A stretch of 43,690 nt of DNA from a virus (IMGVR_UViG_3300028830_000013:1-43690), one strand, 5' to 3'; counted from the first letter of the stretch, positions 1 to 43,690 are shown. Numbers and translations: made by a program. Notes: generated by a model from the letters alone, not told the origin.

Positions 1-141
1 CGGGAAATCCCGAGCGTTGTCGTTTTCAGAGCCCATTCCGGGCGGCTTTACACGTGGCAAACCCCGCAAACCCACGTTCTACAGGGAACCATACCGCCTG
101 CAAAGCCGTGTACGCCGGTTCGATTCCGACCCCCGCCTCCA
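1..141 (+). repeat. attL copy of a 141-bp perfect direct repeat carrying a tRNA/tmRNA-like 3' end
   Basis: Bases 1-141 are identical to 43550-43690. The repeat ends GCCGGTTCGATTCCGACCCCCGCCTCCA (T-loop-like GGTTCGATTCC, terminal CCA). The integrase start lies 138 bp further on. Confidence 0.85.
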
Positions 142-278
142 ATATAATCACCGACTTACGGCAACAAGCAGGCCACGGAAACGTGGCAGATCGCGGCGGT
201 TAATGGGCATAAACCACTCGGGCGAGTGGCAGAACCACGCGGTCATCTTGCGCGTTTGCCGTGGACGGGAGTCGCGGC

Positions 279-1409
279 ATGGCAACCAAGCGCGTGCGCA
301 ATGGCACGTGGCATTTCACGGTTCGGCGAAAAGGGCTGCTGCCGAAGCCGATCTATCTCAGTTTCGCCACCGAAGAGGAAGGCGACCGCTACTGCAAGCA
401 CCTGGAATCGCTGCTCGATCACGGCATCGTGCCGCGCGAGTTCGCCGAGAATCGCGGCAAGCCCAAGACCATCGCAAAGGCGATCGTCGAATACACCGAC
501 GCGGAGCACATATCGAAGCAGGATGCGCCAGTGCTCGAGTTATTGCGCGAGCGTGTGGGCAAGATCGAATTGACCGCCCTCACGTACGCATGGTGCTCTG
601 AATGGGTTTCCAGCATGAAGCGAAAGGATCATCTGGCGCCATCAACCATCCGGCACTACGTCGGCGCGCTGGCCCGATGCATCGATTGGTGTTGCCGGCA
701 CGAGTACATGCCCGGCAATCCACTGCGCGCGCTACCCAAGCGGTACGCCACCTACAACGAGAAGGACGCCTCATTCCTCCCGGAGGAAGCGGAAGTGCCA
801 GATGACGAGCCGAACGACCGGCGCCTCGAGCCCGGCGAGCACGAGCGCATCTTGCGCGTTCTGAAGACCGATTACGTGCCCGACGGGAAGCAACGCGGCC
901 TTGCCCTGGAACACCGCGAGGCGCTGACGCTGATGTATTGGTGGGCGATCCGCGCAGGCATGCGGCTCAGTGAGATGTACACACTGACGACGGATCAGGT
1001 GGATGCCGCGCGGCGCACAATCTTCCTCGATAGGACCAAGAACGGCAGCAAGCGCCAGGTGCCGATGTTTCCCGAGGCCGTAGCCGCGTGGGAGTCGTAC
1101 AGTTTGCCAAATGGTGCAAGTCGGGTGGAGTCGGAAAACTTCGTGTTCCCGTGGTGGTCCGGTGGTGACGAGGCCGAGCGGCGGCGCGTGACATCGTTAT
1201 TGTCACGGCAGTGGGCGCGAATCTTCGCCCAGGCAGGGTGCGCCGGGTTGACGTTCCATGCTCTGCGACACGAGGCGACGTGCTGGGTCTACCTGAACAC
1301 GCAGCTATCGGATGTGCAGATCGCCAAGATGATGGGCTGGAAGTCGCTGAAAATGGCGTTGCGCTACGCGAATCTCAGGGGCTCGGATCTGGCGATGCTG
1401 GCAGGGTAG
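279..1409 (+). CDS. int: Tyrosine recombinase / phage integrase
   Basis: The track ORF is 261..1409. ATG 279 is preceded by GGGAG. C-terminal catalytic-type motifs are AGMRLSEMYTL, HALRHEATCW and LRYANL. The gene is adjacent to attL. Confidence 0.9.
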   Translation: MATKRVRNGTWHFTVRRKGLLPKPIYLSFATEEEGDRYCKHLESLLDHGIVPREFAENRGKPKTIAKAIVEYTDAEHISKQDAPVLELLRERVGKIELTALTYAWCSEWVSSMKRKDHLAPSTIRHYVGALARCIDWCCRHEYMPGNPLRALPKRYATYNEKDASFLPEEAEVPDDEPNDRRLEPGEHERILRVLKTDYVPDGKQRGLALEHREALTLMYWWAIRAGMRLSEMYTLTTDQVDAARRTIFLDRTKNGSKRQVPMFPEAVAAWESYSLPNGASRVESENFVFPWWSGGDEAERRRVTSLLSRQWARIFAQAGCAGLTFHALRHEATCWVYLNTQLSDVQIAKMMGWKSLKMALRYANLRGSDLAMLAG

Positions 1410-6455: not shown

Positions 6456-7484
6456 TTATTCGCCCGCCAGTTGCGCGCGGCGGTCACGGTACTGCTCGGT
6501 CAGTTCGGCGCGCTGCGTGGCGTCCTCGATTTCACCGAGCAGGTCGGCAACGATATCGAGCACGTCAACGTCTTTGGCCTTCTGGATCTGATCGGCGATC
6601 TTGGCGTAGGTAGGGCGGTCGTCTGCGGGCTGCGCAGCGGCCTTGAGGGCGGCGAGCCGCGCTTTATAGGCATCACCAGCCGCCGCCTTGTCGGCATCGT
6701 TGAGGCGCGCAGCGTGTGCCGCCGCTTCCTCCATCTGTTCGCGCGTCGATGCTTCTGCAATCGCCTGTAGCACAACATCGAGCGATACCGGTTTTTGCTC
6801 CGCGTCCTTGCGCTTACCTGCCCCAACACGATCCTTGAATGCGGCCGTCTTGCTGGCGGACTTCTCCTGCTGCGGCTTTTCGATCACTTCGGCGTCGCCC
6901 ATGAATCGCTCACGCGGCGGCTCGATGCTTTCCAGCTCATCCGTGGTGTAGACGCCGAGGATTGCGCCGGGGCAGTACATGCGCGCCCAGTTCTTGACCT
7001 GCAGATAGGCCAGCTGCTGCTTCGGGTTGGTTGCCCACAGCGGGGAGTTTTTTACCTTGACGCTGGCGGCACTCAGCCATTCACCCCACGTGATGTCCGT
7101 TTCGCCCTTGAGGACGGCACCGGCGCGGCACTCGACGTTTGCGCCTTCGCCGCGGTATTCGTAGTGGAAACGCCCGGCGATCGCGCCAGACTCCTGGGCA
7201 ACGGCATTGACCAGTTGGGCCTCATAGCCCAGCGTGCCGTTGACCAGGTGCGTTTTCTGCCCCACGGCGAACGGGTCCATTCGCCAGCGCATCGCCTGCA
7301 TGCTGACTGCCAGGCAGTCGCCGACGTTGCCCTGCAGGTGCTTGGGCACCGTGGCGCGGCCGGATGCCATCATTTCGGCAAACTTCACGACGCGGGAGAA
7401 ATTGGCGTCGTTCAGGATCATGGCGGTGCTGCTGACGGATTCGTCGGACTGTTCTGCTGTCTGCAAAGCGGTGACGTTACTCAT
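6456..7484 (-). CDS. recT: RecT-family single-strand annealing protein
   Basis: ATG 7484 is preceded by AAGGAG. The core (CLAVSMQAMRWRMDPFAVGQKTHLVNGTLGYEAQL...NSPLWATNPKQQLAYLQVKNWARMY) resembles RecT. It is paired with an upstream exonuclease. Confidence 0.8.
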   Translation of the reverse strand: MSNVTALQTAEQSDESVSSTAMILNDANFSRVVKFAEMMASGRATVPKHLQGNVGDCLAVSMQAMRWRMDPFAVGQKTHLVNGTLGYEAQLVNAVAQESGAIAGRFHYEYRGEGANVECRAGAVLKGETDITWGEWLSAASVKVKNSPLWATNPKQQLAYLQVKNWARMYCPGAILGVYTTDELESIEPPRERFMGDAEVIEKPQQEKSASKTAAFKDRVGAGKRKDAEQKPVSLDVVLQAIAEASTREQMEEAAAHAARLNDADKAAAGDAYKARLAALKAAAQPADDRPTYAKIADQIQKAKDVDVLDIVADLLGEIEDATQRAELTEQYRDRRAQLAGE

Positions 7485-8385
7485 CGTTCGACTCCTTCTT
7501 GGTGCGCGGTTTGACGTGCTTGAGTTGGACATAGGTCGAGTCCTCGACCGTGTAGCCCTTGCGGGTGATCTCGCGGCGCTCGTAGCGGCTGCCGTCAGGT
7601 AGCGTCAGCGTGCCGGCGTCGCCAAACGCTTTGAGCAGTTGCGCGTCGGCCGCATCAGTGACGCATTGGAGTTGCGCGATTTGGTCTTTCGCGTCCATGC
7701 GCACCTTGTGCCAGTGCAAGATGCGGTCATCGCCCTGCACCTCGATCTTGTTGATGGCCTTGTGGATCACCTTGAGCGCGTCGAGCGCGTGCGGATGATT
7801 GGGGTCAATCTCGGGCAGATCCGGCCCGGCGATGTAGCGGTCGTAGAAATCCTTCGTCGTGTCGACGATCCATTCACGGATGTCGGCATCGTGCTCGAGC
7901 GGGTATAGGCGCAGGTCGTCGCCGCCGAAAAAAGCCGCAACGTCCCACAGCGCATAGCCGCTGAGCAGCATGTAGCCGTGCGGCTGCGGCAGATACCAGT
8001 CGGGCACGCCGTCGCTGCCGTCTTCGCCCCAGGCGCCACGGAAGTAGTAGGCCGGGCCGACGTTTTTGATTTCCAGCCCTCTGGCGAGCCCTTCATATTT
8101 GCGGTCGATGTGGCCGACGAGCCAGGGGTACATGTCGTTCGTCAGCGTGACATTGGAGCGACGCAAGCGCGTGCCGGTACGCTCGGCAACCATGTGCGCG
8201 ATGACGCTCTCGAATGCGTGGCCGGCGCGCGTCTTGGCGTTGCCCTCGAATGCATGCAAGGCATTGCGCTTGCGCAGCACCAGCTCGGTTGGCGTCTCGT
8301 AGCGGTTGAGGCCGGCGATCGTGGCGATCTCGGAGACCGAGACGTGCGCCTTGCGTGCCTCGATCTGTTCAGCGGTCAATGACAT
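7477..8385 (-). CDS. YqaJ-type (lambda Exo-like) recombination exonuclease
   Basis: N-terminal VSVSEIATIAGLNRYETPTEL plus PD-(D/E)xK-like GHID...GLEIKN. Its end overlaps the recT start by 8 nt. Confidence 0.8.
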   Translation of the reverse strand: MSLTAEQIEARKAHVSVSEIATIAGLNRYETPTELVLRKRNALHAFEGNAKTRAGHAFESVIAHMVAERTGTRLRRSNVTLTNDMYPWLVGHIDRKYEGLARGLEIKNVGPAYYFRGAWGEDGSDGVPDWYLPQPHGYMLLSGYALWDVAAFFGGDDLRLYPLEHDADIREWIVDTTKDFYDRYIAGPDLPEIDPNHPHALDALKVIHKAINKIEVQGDDRILHWHKVRMDAKDQIAQLQCVTDAADAQLLKAFGDAGTLTLPDGSRYERREITRKGYTVEDSTYVQLKHVKPRTKKESNDE

Positions 8386-9158: not shown

Positions 9159-9466
9159 GCCGCCCCTCCCGTTTCCGCCACCCAGCCGGTGGCGTCGGTA
9201 TGTTCGTAGACGTCTGCGATGCTGCTGTCGGCCAGTTTGGTGCCTTCGATGACGCGCAGATCGGCGCGACGACGCGCACTGCGCCAGATGGCGTCGCGCA
9301 CGCGCTGCTCGGCGGTTTTGTCGGCCGGTGGTAGTTCGGCAAGGGCTGCGGCGAGTTCGGTGATGCGATCGTGCTCGGGGTCGGGTGCGAGCCCGCAGGA
9401 GGCCCGAACGGCGATGTAGACCTGCGCTTCGTGCAGCAGGGCGATGAGTTCGGGTGCGGATTTCAT
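9155..9466 (-). CDS. Hypothetical protein (103 aa)
   Basis: Track ORF with ATGA overlaps to both the upstream and downstream genes. Confidence 0.55.
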   Translation of the reverse strand: MKSAPELIALLHEAQVYIAVRASCGLAPDPEHDRITELAAALAELPPADKTAEQRVRDAIWRSARRRADLRVIEGTKLADSSIADVYEHTDATGWVAETGGAA

Positions 9467-10248
9467 TGGGGCGCCTCGACAAACTCACCGCTCGCGTCGA
9501 GCGAATACCAAACCATCGGCTTGAGTCCGTTGTCTCCGATTTTGCTCGCACGGATGTGCACGATTGCTCCTTTGTCATCGCGATGCGTCAGCACGATGGC
9601 GCTCCCGAGTGGGGCGCGTGCCGTGCTGTCGCTGCCTAGCGCGATTGCCACGGCATACAGGAGCGCGCCATCCTCGGCGGGCAGGATCTGACTGGTTGAG
9701 TTATCCCCGGTCGTCAGGCTGGCCGAGCTGTCGCCCGTGGCACTGCTGGCCGAGCTGTCGCCCGTGGCACTGCTGGCCGATCTGTCGCCCGTGGCACTGC
9801 TGGCCGAGCTGTCGCCCGTGGCACTGCTGGCCGAGCTGTAGCCCGTGGCACTGCTGGCCGAGCTGTCGCCCGTGTCGTGAGCATCTTTTGCCGGCTCGCA
9901 CCGGGATTTGACAAACTCAAACGCCGCGGTGATCAACGCGGGGATGCCGATTTCGGCTTTAATCGCGATGCGGCTGCTGGCAATCTTCGTATCTTCGTCG
10001 TGGCGACTGAGCGCACCAGACTGCTCGACTACAGCGAACCTATTTCCGACCGGGCTGTAGTAGCTAAACACATCGAGCGGATGTTCGCAGGCGTGGAAGC
10101 CATTTCTGCAAGCCTCGACCGCCCCTGTGTGTTCATACGACTGGCCGACTGCGTACTGAAAACCGCGGCATTTCCAGTTGGCATCAAAACCTTTGTAGGC
10201 CGTGACGACCTCAGCGGCTGCCTCTTCTTGCTGCACTTGTTTGTCCAT
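9463..10248 (-). CDS. Phage protein with a conserved Cys/His N-domain and 9-aa tandem repeats (I recall the family as DUF7666-like; the name is uncertain)
   Basis: The start is at MDKQVQ (ATG 10248). The N-domain is YKGFDANWKCRGFQYAVGQSYEHTG..CRNGFHACEHPLDVFSYY, followed by roughly 5.5 SATGDSSAS-type repeats. The track ORF extends falsely through the tRNA. Confidence 0.7.
   Translation of the reverse strand: MDKQVQQEEAAAEVVTAYKGFDANWKCRGFQYAVGQSYEHTGAVEACRNGFHACEHPLDVFSYYSPVGNRFAVVEQSGALSRHDEDTKIASSRIAIKAEIGIPALITAAFEFVKSRCEPAKDAHDTGDSSASSATGYSSASSATGDSSASSATGDRSASSATGDSSASSATGDSSASLTTGDNSTSQILPAEDGALLYAVAIALGSDSTARAPLGSAIVLTHRDDKGAIVHIRASKIGDNGLKPMVWYSLDASGEFVEAPQ
9718..9875. repeat. 27-bp tandem repeat, about 5.5 units, in frame inside the CDS
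   Basis: The unit GCTGGCCGAGCTGTCGCCCGTGGCACT starts at 9718, 9745, 9772, 9799 and 9826, with a partial unit at 9853. Units differ by single-base changes. Confidence 0.9.
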
Positions 10249-10266
10249 GCGTCCCCCGTGCGTTTC

Positions 10267-10341
10267 TGGTTGCAGGGGCAGGATTCGAACCTGCGACCTG
10301 CGGGTTATGAGCCCGCCGCGCTGCCGCTGCGCCACCCTGCT
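10267..10341 (-). tRNA. tRNA-Met (anticodon CAU) with bacterial initiator (fMet) signatures
   Basis: The minus-strand sequence is AGCAGGG TG GCGC AGCGGCA GCGC G GCGGG CTCATAA CCCGC AGGTC GCAGG TTCGAAT CCTGC CCCTGCA A CCA, which folds as a cloverleaf by hand. It has GGG/CCC at the bottom of the anticodon stem, unpaired 1:72 (A x A), G2:C71, C3:G70, A73 and an encoded CCA. Confidence 0.85.
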
Positions 10342-10429
10342 GCTGTCGTTACCCACCGGTCCCTGATCCGTCCGCCTCGGTCCTGTCGCGGAGCGGGTGC
10401 CGAGGGGCGGGGGGAGAGGTGATGGGGTA

Positions 10430-10458
10430 AGTATCAGATAACTGATAGTCCGTGTCAA
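10430..10458 (-). promoter_or_regulatory. PL-like early leftward promoter
   Basis: On the minus strand: TTGACA (10458-10453), a 17-nt spacer, then GATACT (10435-10430). Two operator sites overlap it, in the same geometry as PR. Confidence 0.7.
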
Positions 10459-10470
10459 CAGAATCCTGAT
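10432..10470. promoter_or_regulatory. OL-like operators (2 sites, ATCAG-N4-CTGAT family)
   Basis: TATCAGATAACTGATA (10432-10447) and AACAGAATCCTGAT (10457-10470). Their centres are 24 bp apart, and the half-sites match the three sites between the repressor and cro. Confidence 0.7.
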
Positions 10471-10480
10471 TAATTCAGGC

Positions 10481-10506
10481 AAAATAAAACCCGCACGGGG
10501 CGGATT
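10481..10506 (-). terminator. Intrinsic terminator ending the repressor operon (tIMM-like)
   Basis: On the minus strand: AATCCGC-CCCGT-GCGGGTT followed by TTTTATTTT. It lies after the last cassette gene and just before OL/PL. Confidence 0.6.
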
Positions 10507-12116: not shown

Positions 12117-12476
12117 TCACGCGCGCTTTTGCTTGGGCGGCGCCGCTGACTGTTTGGCCCATTCTTCTACCTTCGCCTTCACGGTTATCCGCCCCTCGAG
12201 ATCGAGAGACTCCATGATCTCTATGACGGCTGCGATGTGCTTGTCGTAGAGAGAGTCGAACGCGACGCCGCGCTTGTTGCCCTTCCCCGTCTTCAGCCAG
12301 TAGGCGTCTACTCCAAGGGCGTGAGCCATTTCTGGCAGGAATTTGGAGTTCTGCTGCCCTCTGCTCTCGAGGGCGCCTACGAATGATTGCGCGATCTTGC
12401 ATTGACGTGCCAGTTCGGCACCGGTCCAGCCCTTGGCCTCGCGCTCGGCAATGAGTCTGTCTCTTAGCGTAGTCAT
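12117..12476 (-). CDS. cI-like XRE-family HTH repressor (119 aa, no S24 peptidase domain)
   Basis: Starts at MTTLRDRL. The HTH is WTGAELARQCKIAQSFVGALESRGQ. It is divergent from the cro-like gene across a three-operator region. The track ORF 12117..12659 over-extends it. Confidence 0.8.
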   Translation of the reverse strand: MTTLRDRLIAEREAKGWTGAELARQCKIAQSFVGALESRGQQNSKFLPEMAHALGVDAYWLKTGKGNKRGVAFDSLYDKHIAAVIEIMESLDLEGRITVKAKVEEWAKQSAAPPKQKRA

Positions 12477-12541
12477 ATCAGTATTGTGATTGCTTGTGCT
12501 ATCAGACTGCTGTTGACTTGAGTAATCAGAATTCTGATAAT
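12477..12541. promoter_or_regulatory. OR-like region: three operators plus the PR promoter
   Basis: The operators are ATCAGTATTGTGAT (12477-12490), ATCAGACTGCTGTT (12501-12514) and the perfect palindrome ATCAGAATTCTGAT (12525-12538), with centres 24 bp apart. PR is TTGACT (12513-12518), 17 nt, then GATAAT (12536-12541). Confidence 0.75.
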
Positions 12542-12546
12542 CGCGC

Positions 12547-12747
12547 ATGGACTGGAAAAAACTCATTGATGAGCTGCGGCAGAGCGGGCTGACCCAGGCA
12601 AAAGTAGGGGCCTCGATCGGGAAGTCGCAAGCGTGGGTTGCGGCTGTCTGCGCCGGCAAATACGACGACCTGAAGTGGTGCGATGGTGAGGCGCTGAGGC
12701 GACTTCACGCTGAGCACTGCGACATCGCCAAGGACGAAGCCGCCTGA
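12547..12747 (+). CDS. Cro-like small HTH regulator
   Basis: 66 aa with HTH-like LTQAKVGASIGKSQAWVAAVCAG. It is the first rightward gene, divergent from the repressor. No SD is present, and the ATG lies 6 nt after the -10. Confidence 0.7.
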   Translation: MDWKKLIDELRQSGLTQAKVGASIGKSQAWVAAVCAGKYDDLKWCDGEALRRLHAEHCDIAKDEAA

Positions 12748-43544: not shown

Positions 43545-43578
43545 ACGCTCGGGAAATCCCGAGCGTTGTCGTTTTCAG
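43545..43578 (+). terminator. Terminator-like hairpin straddling the left edge of the attR repeat
   Basis: ACGCTCGGG-AAAT-CCCGAGCGT (43545-43566) followed by TGTCGTTTTC. The first 5 nt lie outside the 141-bp repeat. Confidence 0.5.
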
Positions 43579-43690
43579 AGCCCATTCCGGGCGGCTTTAC
43601 ACGTGGCAAACCCCGCAAACCCACGTTCTACAGGGAACCATACCGCCTGCAAAGCCGTGTACGCCGGTTCGATTCCGACCCCCGCCTCCA
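43550..43690 (+). repeat. attR copy of the 141-bp direct repeat
   Basis: Identical to 1-141. The window ends exactly at the terminal CCA. Confidence 0.85.

Follow-up and report, generated by a model that had tools for sequence, protein, structure and literature searches.

The window analyzed in this study, that is, the whole stretch of 43,690 bp, is a complete virus record of IMG/VR from a bioreactor metagenome, and this DNA is contained in four sequencing runs, all of them DNA runs and all from one bioreactor study. ARAGORN calls a single tRNA in the window, a tRNA-Met(CAT) on the minus strand, which lies between a predicted promoter and the first protein gene of the early-left operon (Table 1). 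The −10 hexamer of this promoter ends at 10430, which places the predicted start near 10423; the distance of about 82 nt from there to the 5′ end of the tRNA at 10341, as given in the original prediction, is arithmetically right. On the other side, 18 nt containing a Shine-Dalgarno sequence separate the 3′ end of the tRNA from the ATG of the DUF7666 gene, and a YqaJ/RecE-like exonuclease gene lies further downstream in the same unit. Several small genes without known function lie between the cI-like repressor gene and the terminator-like hairpin, which comes immediately before the promoter and ends the operon on the repressor side.

Table 1. Positions of the tRNA gene and of the regulatory, protein-coding, and attachment features of the phage genome
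Feature	Position	Strand	Basis
attP core, 3′ 46 nt of betaproteobacterial tRNA-Cys(GCA)	96..141	+	Exact 44-mer match
Tyrosine integrase gene	261..1409	+	PF00589 (1.5e-20), phrog_1
YqaJ/RecE-like exonuclease gene	7480-8385	−	Domain and PHROG matches
First early-left protein gene, DUF7666 with nonapeptide repeat	9463..10248	−	Pfam PF24703 (6.5e-37), phrog_4433
Initiator-type tRNA-Met(CAU), 75 nt, CCA encoded, A1×A72	10267..10341	−	ARAGORN, Rfam RF00005, MFE fold
Predicted GC-rich leader, 82 nt, with hairpin	10342..10423	−	Fold
σ70-like promoter, TTGACA, 17-nt spacer, GATACT	10430..10458	−	Consensus scan, 10/12 matches, prediction
Two repressor-operator-like sites over the −10 and −35 hexamers	10433-10446, 10457-10470	.	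ATCAG-N4-CTGAT pattern
Terminator-like hairpin with T-run	10488..10506	−	
cI-like HTH repressor gene	12120..12476	−	HTH_3/Phage_CI_repr, phrog_4
Three operator sites between the repressor and cro-like genes	12477..12538	.	ATCAG-N4-CTGAT pattern
cro-like regulator gene	12547..12747	+	phrog_6831 (2.4e-12)

The pattern ATCAG-N4-CTGAT occurs at five sites in the window, compared with an expectation of 0.95, and shuffled sequences always gave fewer than five. Judged by these pattern matches and consensus predictions, the region has the layout of a lambda-like PL, with operators both at cI/cro and at the promoter, and with the promoter leading into recombination genes. The claim that the tRNA is the first product of a PL transcript is thus supported by the predicted promoter, the terminator upstream of it, and the two operators that overlap it, and the tRNA would be the 5′-most product of a repressor-controlled, PL-like promoter that should be silent in the lysogen. 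The repressor itself is listed as an ORF of 180 amino acids (12120-12659), and the ATG at 12476 gives a protein of 119 amino acids with the HTH only and no peptidase domain; from the positions of the operators, this ATG is probably the start of the repressor.

The genome carries a 141-bp terminal repeat (1-141 and 43550-43690). A commonly used metagenome assembler has 141 as its top k-mer length, and the repeat therefore probably reflects the overlap of a circular assembly, broken at host-shared sequence, and not an att duplication. The exact 44-mer of the attP core is found in at least 120 betaproteobacterial contigs and in every case forms the 3′ end of a tRNA-Cys gene, including contigs of Cupriavidus, Ralstonia, Bordetella, Paludibacterium, and Crenobacter. 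From these matches we conclude that attP lies beside the integrase gene, that the phage integrates into tRNA-Cys, and that its host is a betaproteobacterium. Two other assignments were rejected, namely, (i) the end of the terminal repeat as a tmRNA, for which Rfam found nothing and the sequence of which is the 3′ end of tRNA-Cys, and (ii) the tRNA-Met as the att site, given that it is a complete gene at 9 kb from attP and integrase and that attP corresponds to tRNA-Cys.

Identity of the tRNA and its bacterial counterparts

The tRNA scores 65 bits against Rfam RF00005 (gathering score, 29; E value, 5e-12), and its cloverleaf is retained in the MFE fold. In the acceptor stem, an unpaired A1 opposite A72 is followed by G2:C71, C3:G70, A4:U69, and G5-7:C66-68. 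The D stem is GCGC/GCGC, so that 11:24 is C:G, and closes a D loop of 7 nt, whereas the anticodon stem, GCGGG/CCCGC, provides G:C pairs at 29:41, 30:40, and 31:39 beneath a 7-nt loop, CUCAUAA, with the anticodon CAU. A variable loop of 5 nt, a T stem of GCAGG/CCUGC, and A73 followed by an encoded CCA complete the molecule. Every initiator hallmark named in the original prediction (CAU, the three G:C pairs, A×A at 1:72, G2:C71, C3:G70, and A73) is found in the gene.

The two major determinants of initiators are the 1×72 mismatch and the three G:C pairs (PMC7949028), with G2:C71, C3:G70, and A11:U24 acting as formylation helpers (PMC7949028, PMC3017606), and the unpaired 1×72 blocks EF-Tu binding (PMC3017606, PMC7949028). 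The phage tRNA has the mismatch and the three G:C pairs, and of the helpers it has G2:C71 and C3:G70. The tRNA departs from the bacterial consensus in having C11:G24 for A11:U24 and A4:U69 for G4:C69, and with C11:G24 it lacks the purine11:pyrimidine24 pair used as a criterion for bacterial initiators. We nevertheless file it as an initiator-type variant because the 11:24 pair assists formylation as an auxiliary determinant and lies outside the two major features (PMC7949028). Judged from its sequence, the gene encodes a complete, phage-encoded, initiator-type tRNA. As to the software check proposed earlier, the tRNA call held, with tRNA-Met(CAT) from ARAGORN and the Rfam score given above for the general tRNA model, and the assignment to the initiator class rests on similarity ranking and identity positions.

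In five betaproteobacterial genomes, the best matches are their canonical initiators, at 84 to 87% identity and E values of 1e-17 to 1e-19, and the next CAU tRNA reaches only 1e-4. Matches in E. coli, at 83 to 84% identity, fall at a median of four places per genome, in line with the four initiator genes reported for this species (PMC3017606), and the one match that was inspected is metY, upstream of rimP. The tRNA is therefore close to E. coli tRNA-fMet, as had been claimed, with the betaproteobacterial initiators nearer still. An elongator tRNA-Met, a lysidine-type tRNA-Ile2, or a complementing tRNA of tRNA-dependent lysogeny could share some of these traits, as CAU is common to all three tRNA classes, C11:G24 is an elongator-type arrangement, and the integration site of the phage is itself a tRNA gene; we regard any of these identities as extremely improbable, since the unpaired 1×72 together with the three G:C pairs is initiator specific (PMC3017606, PMC7949028) and the top matches in six bacterial genomes are initiators. 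In tRNA-dependent lysogeny, the phage tRNA has the isotype of the disrupted attB tRNA, which a short core fails to rebuild (PMC10865867). This mechanism was rejected for the present phage, in which the isotypes differ (Met versus Cys) and the 46 nt of the 3′ part supplied by attP would rebuild tRNA-Cys.

Overall, the initiators of E. coli (metY/metZWV), Ralstonia, Cupriavidus, Paludibacterium, and Crenobacter are 83 to 87% identical to the phage tRNA and share with it CAU, the anticodon loop, the three G:C pairs, the unpaired 1×72, G2:C71, C3:G70, A73, and the variable loop; the T stem is that of the betaproteobacterial initiators. Alignment with the host-lineage (betaproteobacterial) copies, a comparison that the original prediction had proposed, shows the differences to cluster in the acceptor and D stems, with the VapC cleavage site unchanged. 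The phage tRNA has A1 for C1, A:U for G:C at 4:69, C:G for A:U at 11:24, G:C for U:A at 27:43, G57 for A57, and a D loop of 7 nt versus 8 to 9 nt, and it is identical to the host-lineage initiators at positions 28 to 42, including A38/C39. Because the three stem differences (4:69, 11:24, and 27:43) are compensatory double changes, selection has acted on the fold, and the gene is no decaying copy.

Of 301 sampled genomes of the host order (one of them, G299, is unpublished and makes no difference to the counts), none combines a GCAGGG-type acceptor with a CAU arm of three G:C pairs, versus 230 genomes with the canonical GCGGGG type. Most of these 230 genomes have a single match, and 11:24 is A:U in all the host-order initiators listed. 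The combination of acceptor and anticodon arm in the phage tRNA, unseen in the sampled host chromosomes, is mildly new.

Occurrence among relatives and in other viruses

Near-identical DNA had no match among GenBank phages. A tRNA-Met was found at none of the 80 loci with the closest terminases (57 to 75% identical) and at none of the 54 loci with DUF7666 homologues, and linkage to the downstream gene was thus rejected. Its absence from both sets indicates that the tRNA-Met is dispensable for this type of phage, and by its distribution in these sequences it behaves like a moron-type accessory gene and not like a lineage trait. The same absence, together with the sporadic occurrence of tRNAs in the phage group (13 in total, in 9 of the 80 terminase-selected loci), would also suit a neutral passenger, picked up by chance from a host, for example, through imprecise excision or recombination, or left over from a former att site, that selection does not maintain. 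We find this quite improbable: the gene is complete and not a 3′ fragment, it lies far from an integrase and attP that use tRNA-Cys, its position is exact, with a promoter under operator control on one side and the first early gene on the other, and it has diverged by 13 to 16% from host initiators with every stem kept through compensatory changes.

Two further observations concern the DUF7666 homologues. Many IMG/VR contigs end inside them, at the nonapeptide repeat, the near-perfect 27-bp array of which evidently breaks short-read assemblies. In addition, an unusually long “tRNA-Cys(GCA)” of 82 nt is called (288-369) in three related viral contigs (L063, L065, and L077), 2.7 kb upstream of the homologues, and may represent an att-site tRNA, an intron-containing tRNA, or an odd one.

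Beyond these relatives, blastn of the 75 nt retrieved similar tRNAs from 129 INPHARED phage records, 72 of which cover at least 80% of the query, and an unselected pattern found similar CAU tRNAs with three G:C pairs in at least 116 IMG/VR contigs. The earlier suggestion that such a tRNA is a rarity in phages does not survive these numbers, which include the temperate phage D3. Parsing by T-loop anchoring gave, among the matches listed, 75 distinct, well-formed viral tRNAs of this kind, from a sample that includes giant-virus bins (GVMAG) and hence mixed host domains. Position 1:72 is unpaired in 56 of the 75, most often as C×A (20), followed by C×U (9), U×U (9), A×A (7), and A×C (6); A4:U69 occurs in 10, C11:G24 in 7, and A73 in 67. 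Because all of them recur among these 75 viral genes, each of the odd features of the phage tRNA falls within the viral spectrum. Within the same listed matches, 12 of 75 have a U1:A72 pair in place of the mismatch, and CCA is unencoded in 44 of 75.

When initiator-like tRNAs from phages (14) and bacteria (4) are aligned, the cloverleaf is 93.4% paired, compared with about 40% in slid controls, and 10 pairs change on both sides, a number reached by none of 500 shuffles. Position 1:72 is unpaired in all 18, with A, C, or G at position 1, in a set in which 9 of the 14 phage tRNAs came from a pattern fixing A72 and U69. This suggests that non-pairing at 1:72 may itself be under selection.

Proposed role and its alternatives

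We favor, with modest confidence, a working initiator tRNA that is made first after derepression and enlarges or protects the supply of initiators on which phage translation draws. In the lysogen, the repressor is predicted to occupy the early-left promoter, and at the onset of lytic growth the tRNA would form the 5′ end of the transcript. By analogy with established tRNA biology, RNase P, removing the leader, and 3′ processing would excise the tRNA; host MetRS would charge it via CAU and A73; host formyltransferase would formylate it via the 1×72 mismatch, 2:71, and 3:70; and the three G:C pairs would give it entry to the ribosomal P site. The phage copy would be expressed from a near-consensus promoter on a replicating genome, versus a mostly single chromosomal initiator gene in the host order. 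We infer that a raised or safeguarded initiator-tRNA pool would benefit phage protein synthesis, because most matching host-order genomes have this single gene and because the amount of initiator tRNA has been shown to limit how efficiently and how accurately translation starts (PMC3017606).

A private start-codon system was rejected, as the tRNA keeps the canonical anticodon, CAU, and the start-codon census of the phage is ordinary, with 36 ATG, 12 TTG, and 11 GTG starts and no excess of others. Few open stretches lie upstream of these starts, and they are mostly antisense shadows.

The benefit could also lie in counter-defense by resupply, with the phage copy replacing a host initiator destroyed or blocked by a toxin that infection or induction sets off. 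Such a toxin could be a VapC-type PIN nuclease, an AtaT-type acetyltransferase, or one that reads the acceptor stem, and escape from acceptor-reading toxins would be included. The tRNA would then work exactly as proposed above, and the selective benefit alone would differ. Being the first predicted product after derepression would suit this role; a function of phage tRNAs against defenses that attack tRNAs has been proposed (PMC10264068), and VapC of enteric bacteria and Leptospira cleaves initiator tRNA (PMC4105405). Enteric VapC cuts between A38 and C39 (PMC4105405), and a changed anticodon loop is the proposed sign of a phage tRNA that is insensitive to such nucleases (PMC10264068). Here the loop, the G:C pairs that close it, and with them the A38/C39 site match the host's, so that by this published criterion the phage tRNA is not an insensitive variant. 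Moreover, where tRNA-fMet is a target of VapC, phages are reported as a rule not to carry it (PMC10264068). The VapC counter-defense put forward in the original prediction thus gains no positive support from an anticodon stem-loop that matches the host's throughout positions 28 to 42.

Resupply would fit the way in which the changes relative to the host copies cluster in the acceptor and D stems (1, 4:69, and 11:24), the absence of the GCAGGG-type acceptor from the 301 host-order genomes, and the recurrence of A4:U69 in phage tRNAs with hosts from three proteobacterial classes. This recurrence may simply mean that the tRNAs share an ancestor within one mobile lineage, and the first IMG/VR pattern itself selected for A4:U69, which the unselected viral sample has in only 10 of 75 among the matches listed. 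We know of no initiator-directed toxin for the uncultured host of this phage, which also counts against resupply. All in all, we consider resupply possible, if unlikely.

The shared features could also mark a phage-borne initiator lineage, diverged in acceptor and D stem and conserved in the anticodon arm, that frees phage initiation from the host pool. Such a lineage, which we judge distinctly unlikely, would be recognized by A or G1 opposite A72, A4:U69, a short D loop, and sometimes C11:G24, and in temperate phages the tRNA would be the leading gene of the earliest or the principal transcripts. If it existed, it could mean escape from acceptor-reading toxins or regulators, or a changed formylation gating of initiation.

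A different kind of explanation would make the tRNA a cis-acting RNA processing element, the fold of which would recruit RNase P and 3′ enzymes to remove the leader and so set the 5′ end, stability, or ribosome access of the early-left mRNA, any translational use being incidental. The short spacer to the ATG holds the Shine-Dalgarno sequence, and in the MFE fold (10249-10425, minus strand) it is paired, across the tRNA, with the C-rich start of the leader, so that tRNA excision could unmask the ribosome site of the DUF7666 gene. A precedent exists in E. coli metY upstream of rimP, where an initiator tRNA comes first in an mRNA operon. The fold of the leader/tRNA region is no stabler than that of shuffled sequence (z = 0.77), which led us to reject a structured regulatory leader, and relatives of the DUF7666 gene have no tRNA upstream. 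Furthermore, CAU, A73, the three G:C pairs, the unpaired 1×72, and the encoded CCA are needless for processing and yet are kept, also in related phage tRNAs. These points make a purely cis-acting role improbable.

Why phages carry tRNAs is debated, and codon-usage compensation cannot explain an initiator tRNA. With a single initiator tRNA wired to the lysis-lysogeny switch, defined differences from the host copy (A1, A4:U69, and C11:G24), and parallels in other temperate phages, the locus offers a clean natural test case for two questions, namely, if phage genes are expressed under a limiting supply of initiator tRNA and if acceptor- and D-stem variants alter formylation or toxin sensitivity.

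Comparison with known systems

The closest parallel is a tRNA of Mesorhizobium phage vB_MseS-P1 (PP232116, 6210-6284), likewise of 75 nt and from a temperate phage of about 41 kb, with an identical acceptor, including A1×A72 and A4:U69, a 7-nt D loop, and an encoded CCA. It lies in the immediate-early region, directly 3′ of a cro-like gene and ahead of cII, and differs from our case in being on the rightward (PR-like) side, in having only two G:C pairs (U29:A41), and in having G:C at 11:24. This tRNA is unannotated in GenBank, where a 166-amino-acid CDS, “transcriptional repressor” (gp13), is drawn over it, probably a mis-annotation. More generally, phage tRNAs with the same acceptor tend to head transcription units: in one group (L082) the tRNA lies between CI-like and CII-like genes, in L092 it lies 3′ of a Q-like antiterminator, and in L085 and L094 it lies just upstream of terminase.

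The tRNA-Met of the temperate Pseudomonas phage D3 (AF165214, 53398-53473) and that of the D3-like BUCT566 also combine three G:C pairs with an encoded CCA, G2:C71, C3:G70, and A4:U69, with C×U at 1:72. They differ in position, coming behind NinG toward the end of the early-right region; the D3 gene is followed by three more tRNAs, and the record labels it simply as tRNA-Met. Both have C33 for the near-universal U33 (loop CCCAUAA), an anticodon-adjacent change of the kind discussed for nuclease evasion. Among the other phages checked, Komagataeibacter phiKX1 has C×A and Sinorhizobium phiLM21 has G×A at 1:72, and Pseudomonas phage Y6 has a host-like canonical initiator. The phiLM21-like prophages of Sinorhizobium meliloti are 50-kb temperate phages with a lone tRNA(CAU) that integrate into a different tRNA gene; in a 2025 survey, 15 of 25 had a single tRNA, four of which were called tRNA-fMet, and the authors ruled out tRNA-dependent lysogeny and assigned no function to the tRNA (PMC12429752). 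Unlike the phage studied here, phiLM21 has an alphaproteobacterial host, and its tRNA lies upstream of the terminase genes and not at an early promoter.

With phage tRNAs proposed or shown to act against tRNA-targeting defenses (PMC10264068), our tRNA shares the status of a phage copy of a toxin-attacked tRNA and an early expression, predicted here; those tRNAs have anticodon-loop variants, whereas the present loop is unchanged relative to the host. A more distant likeness is to the human cytoplasmic initiator tRNA (PMC12775451), which is identical at 22 of the first 25 nt and at 59 of 75 nt overall (hand count, ungapped) and shares the length of 75 nt, A1, A4:U69, C11:G24, and the 7-nt D loop. 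The human initiator has a paired A1:U72 and the eukaryotic T loop with A54 and A60, in contrast to the bacterial mismatch and T loop of the phage tRNA, and we regard the likeness as probably convergent because the shared features recur separately among viral tRNAs. The discovery is a modest one, since initiator-type tRNAs of phages had been recorded before; against this background, the initiator tRNA of this phage is a clean example of an already known kind, in an unusually clean regulatory placement.
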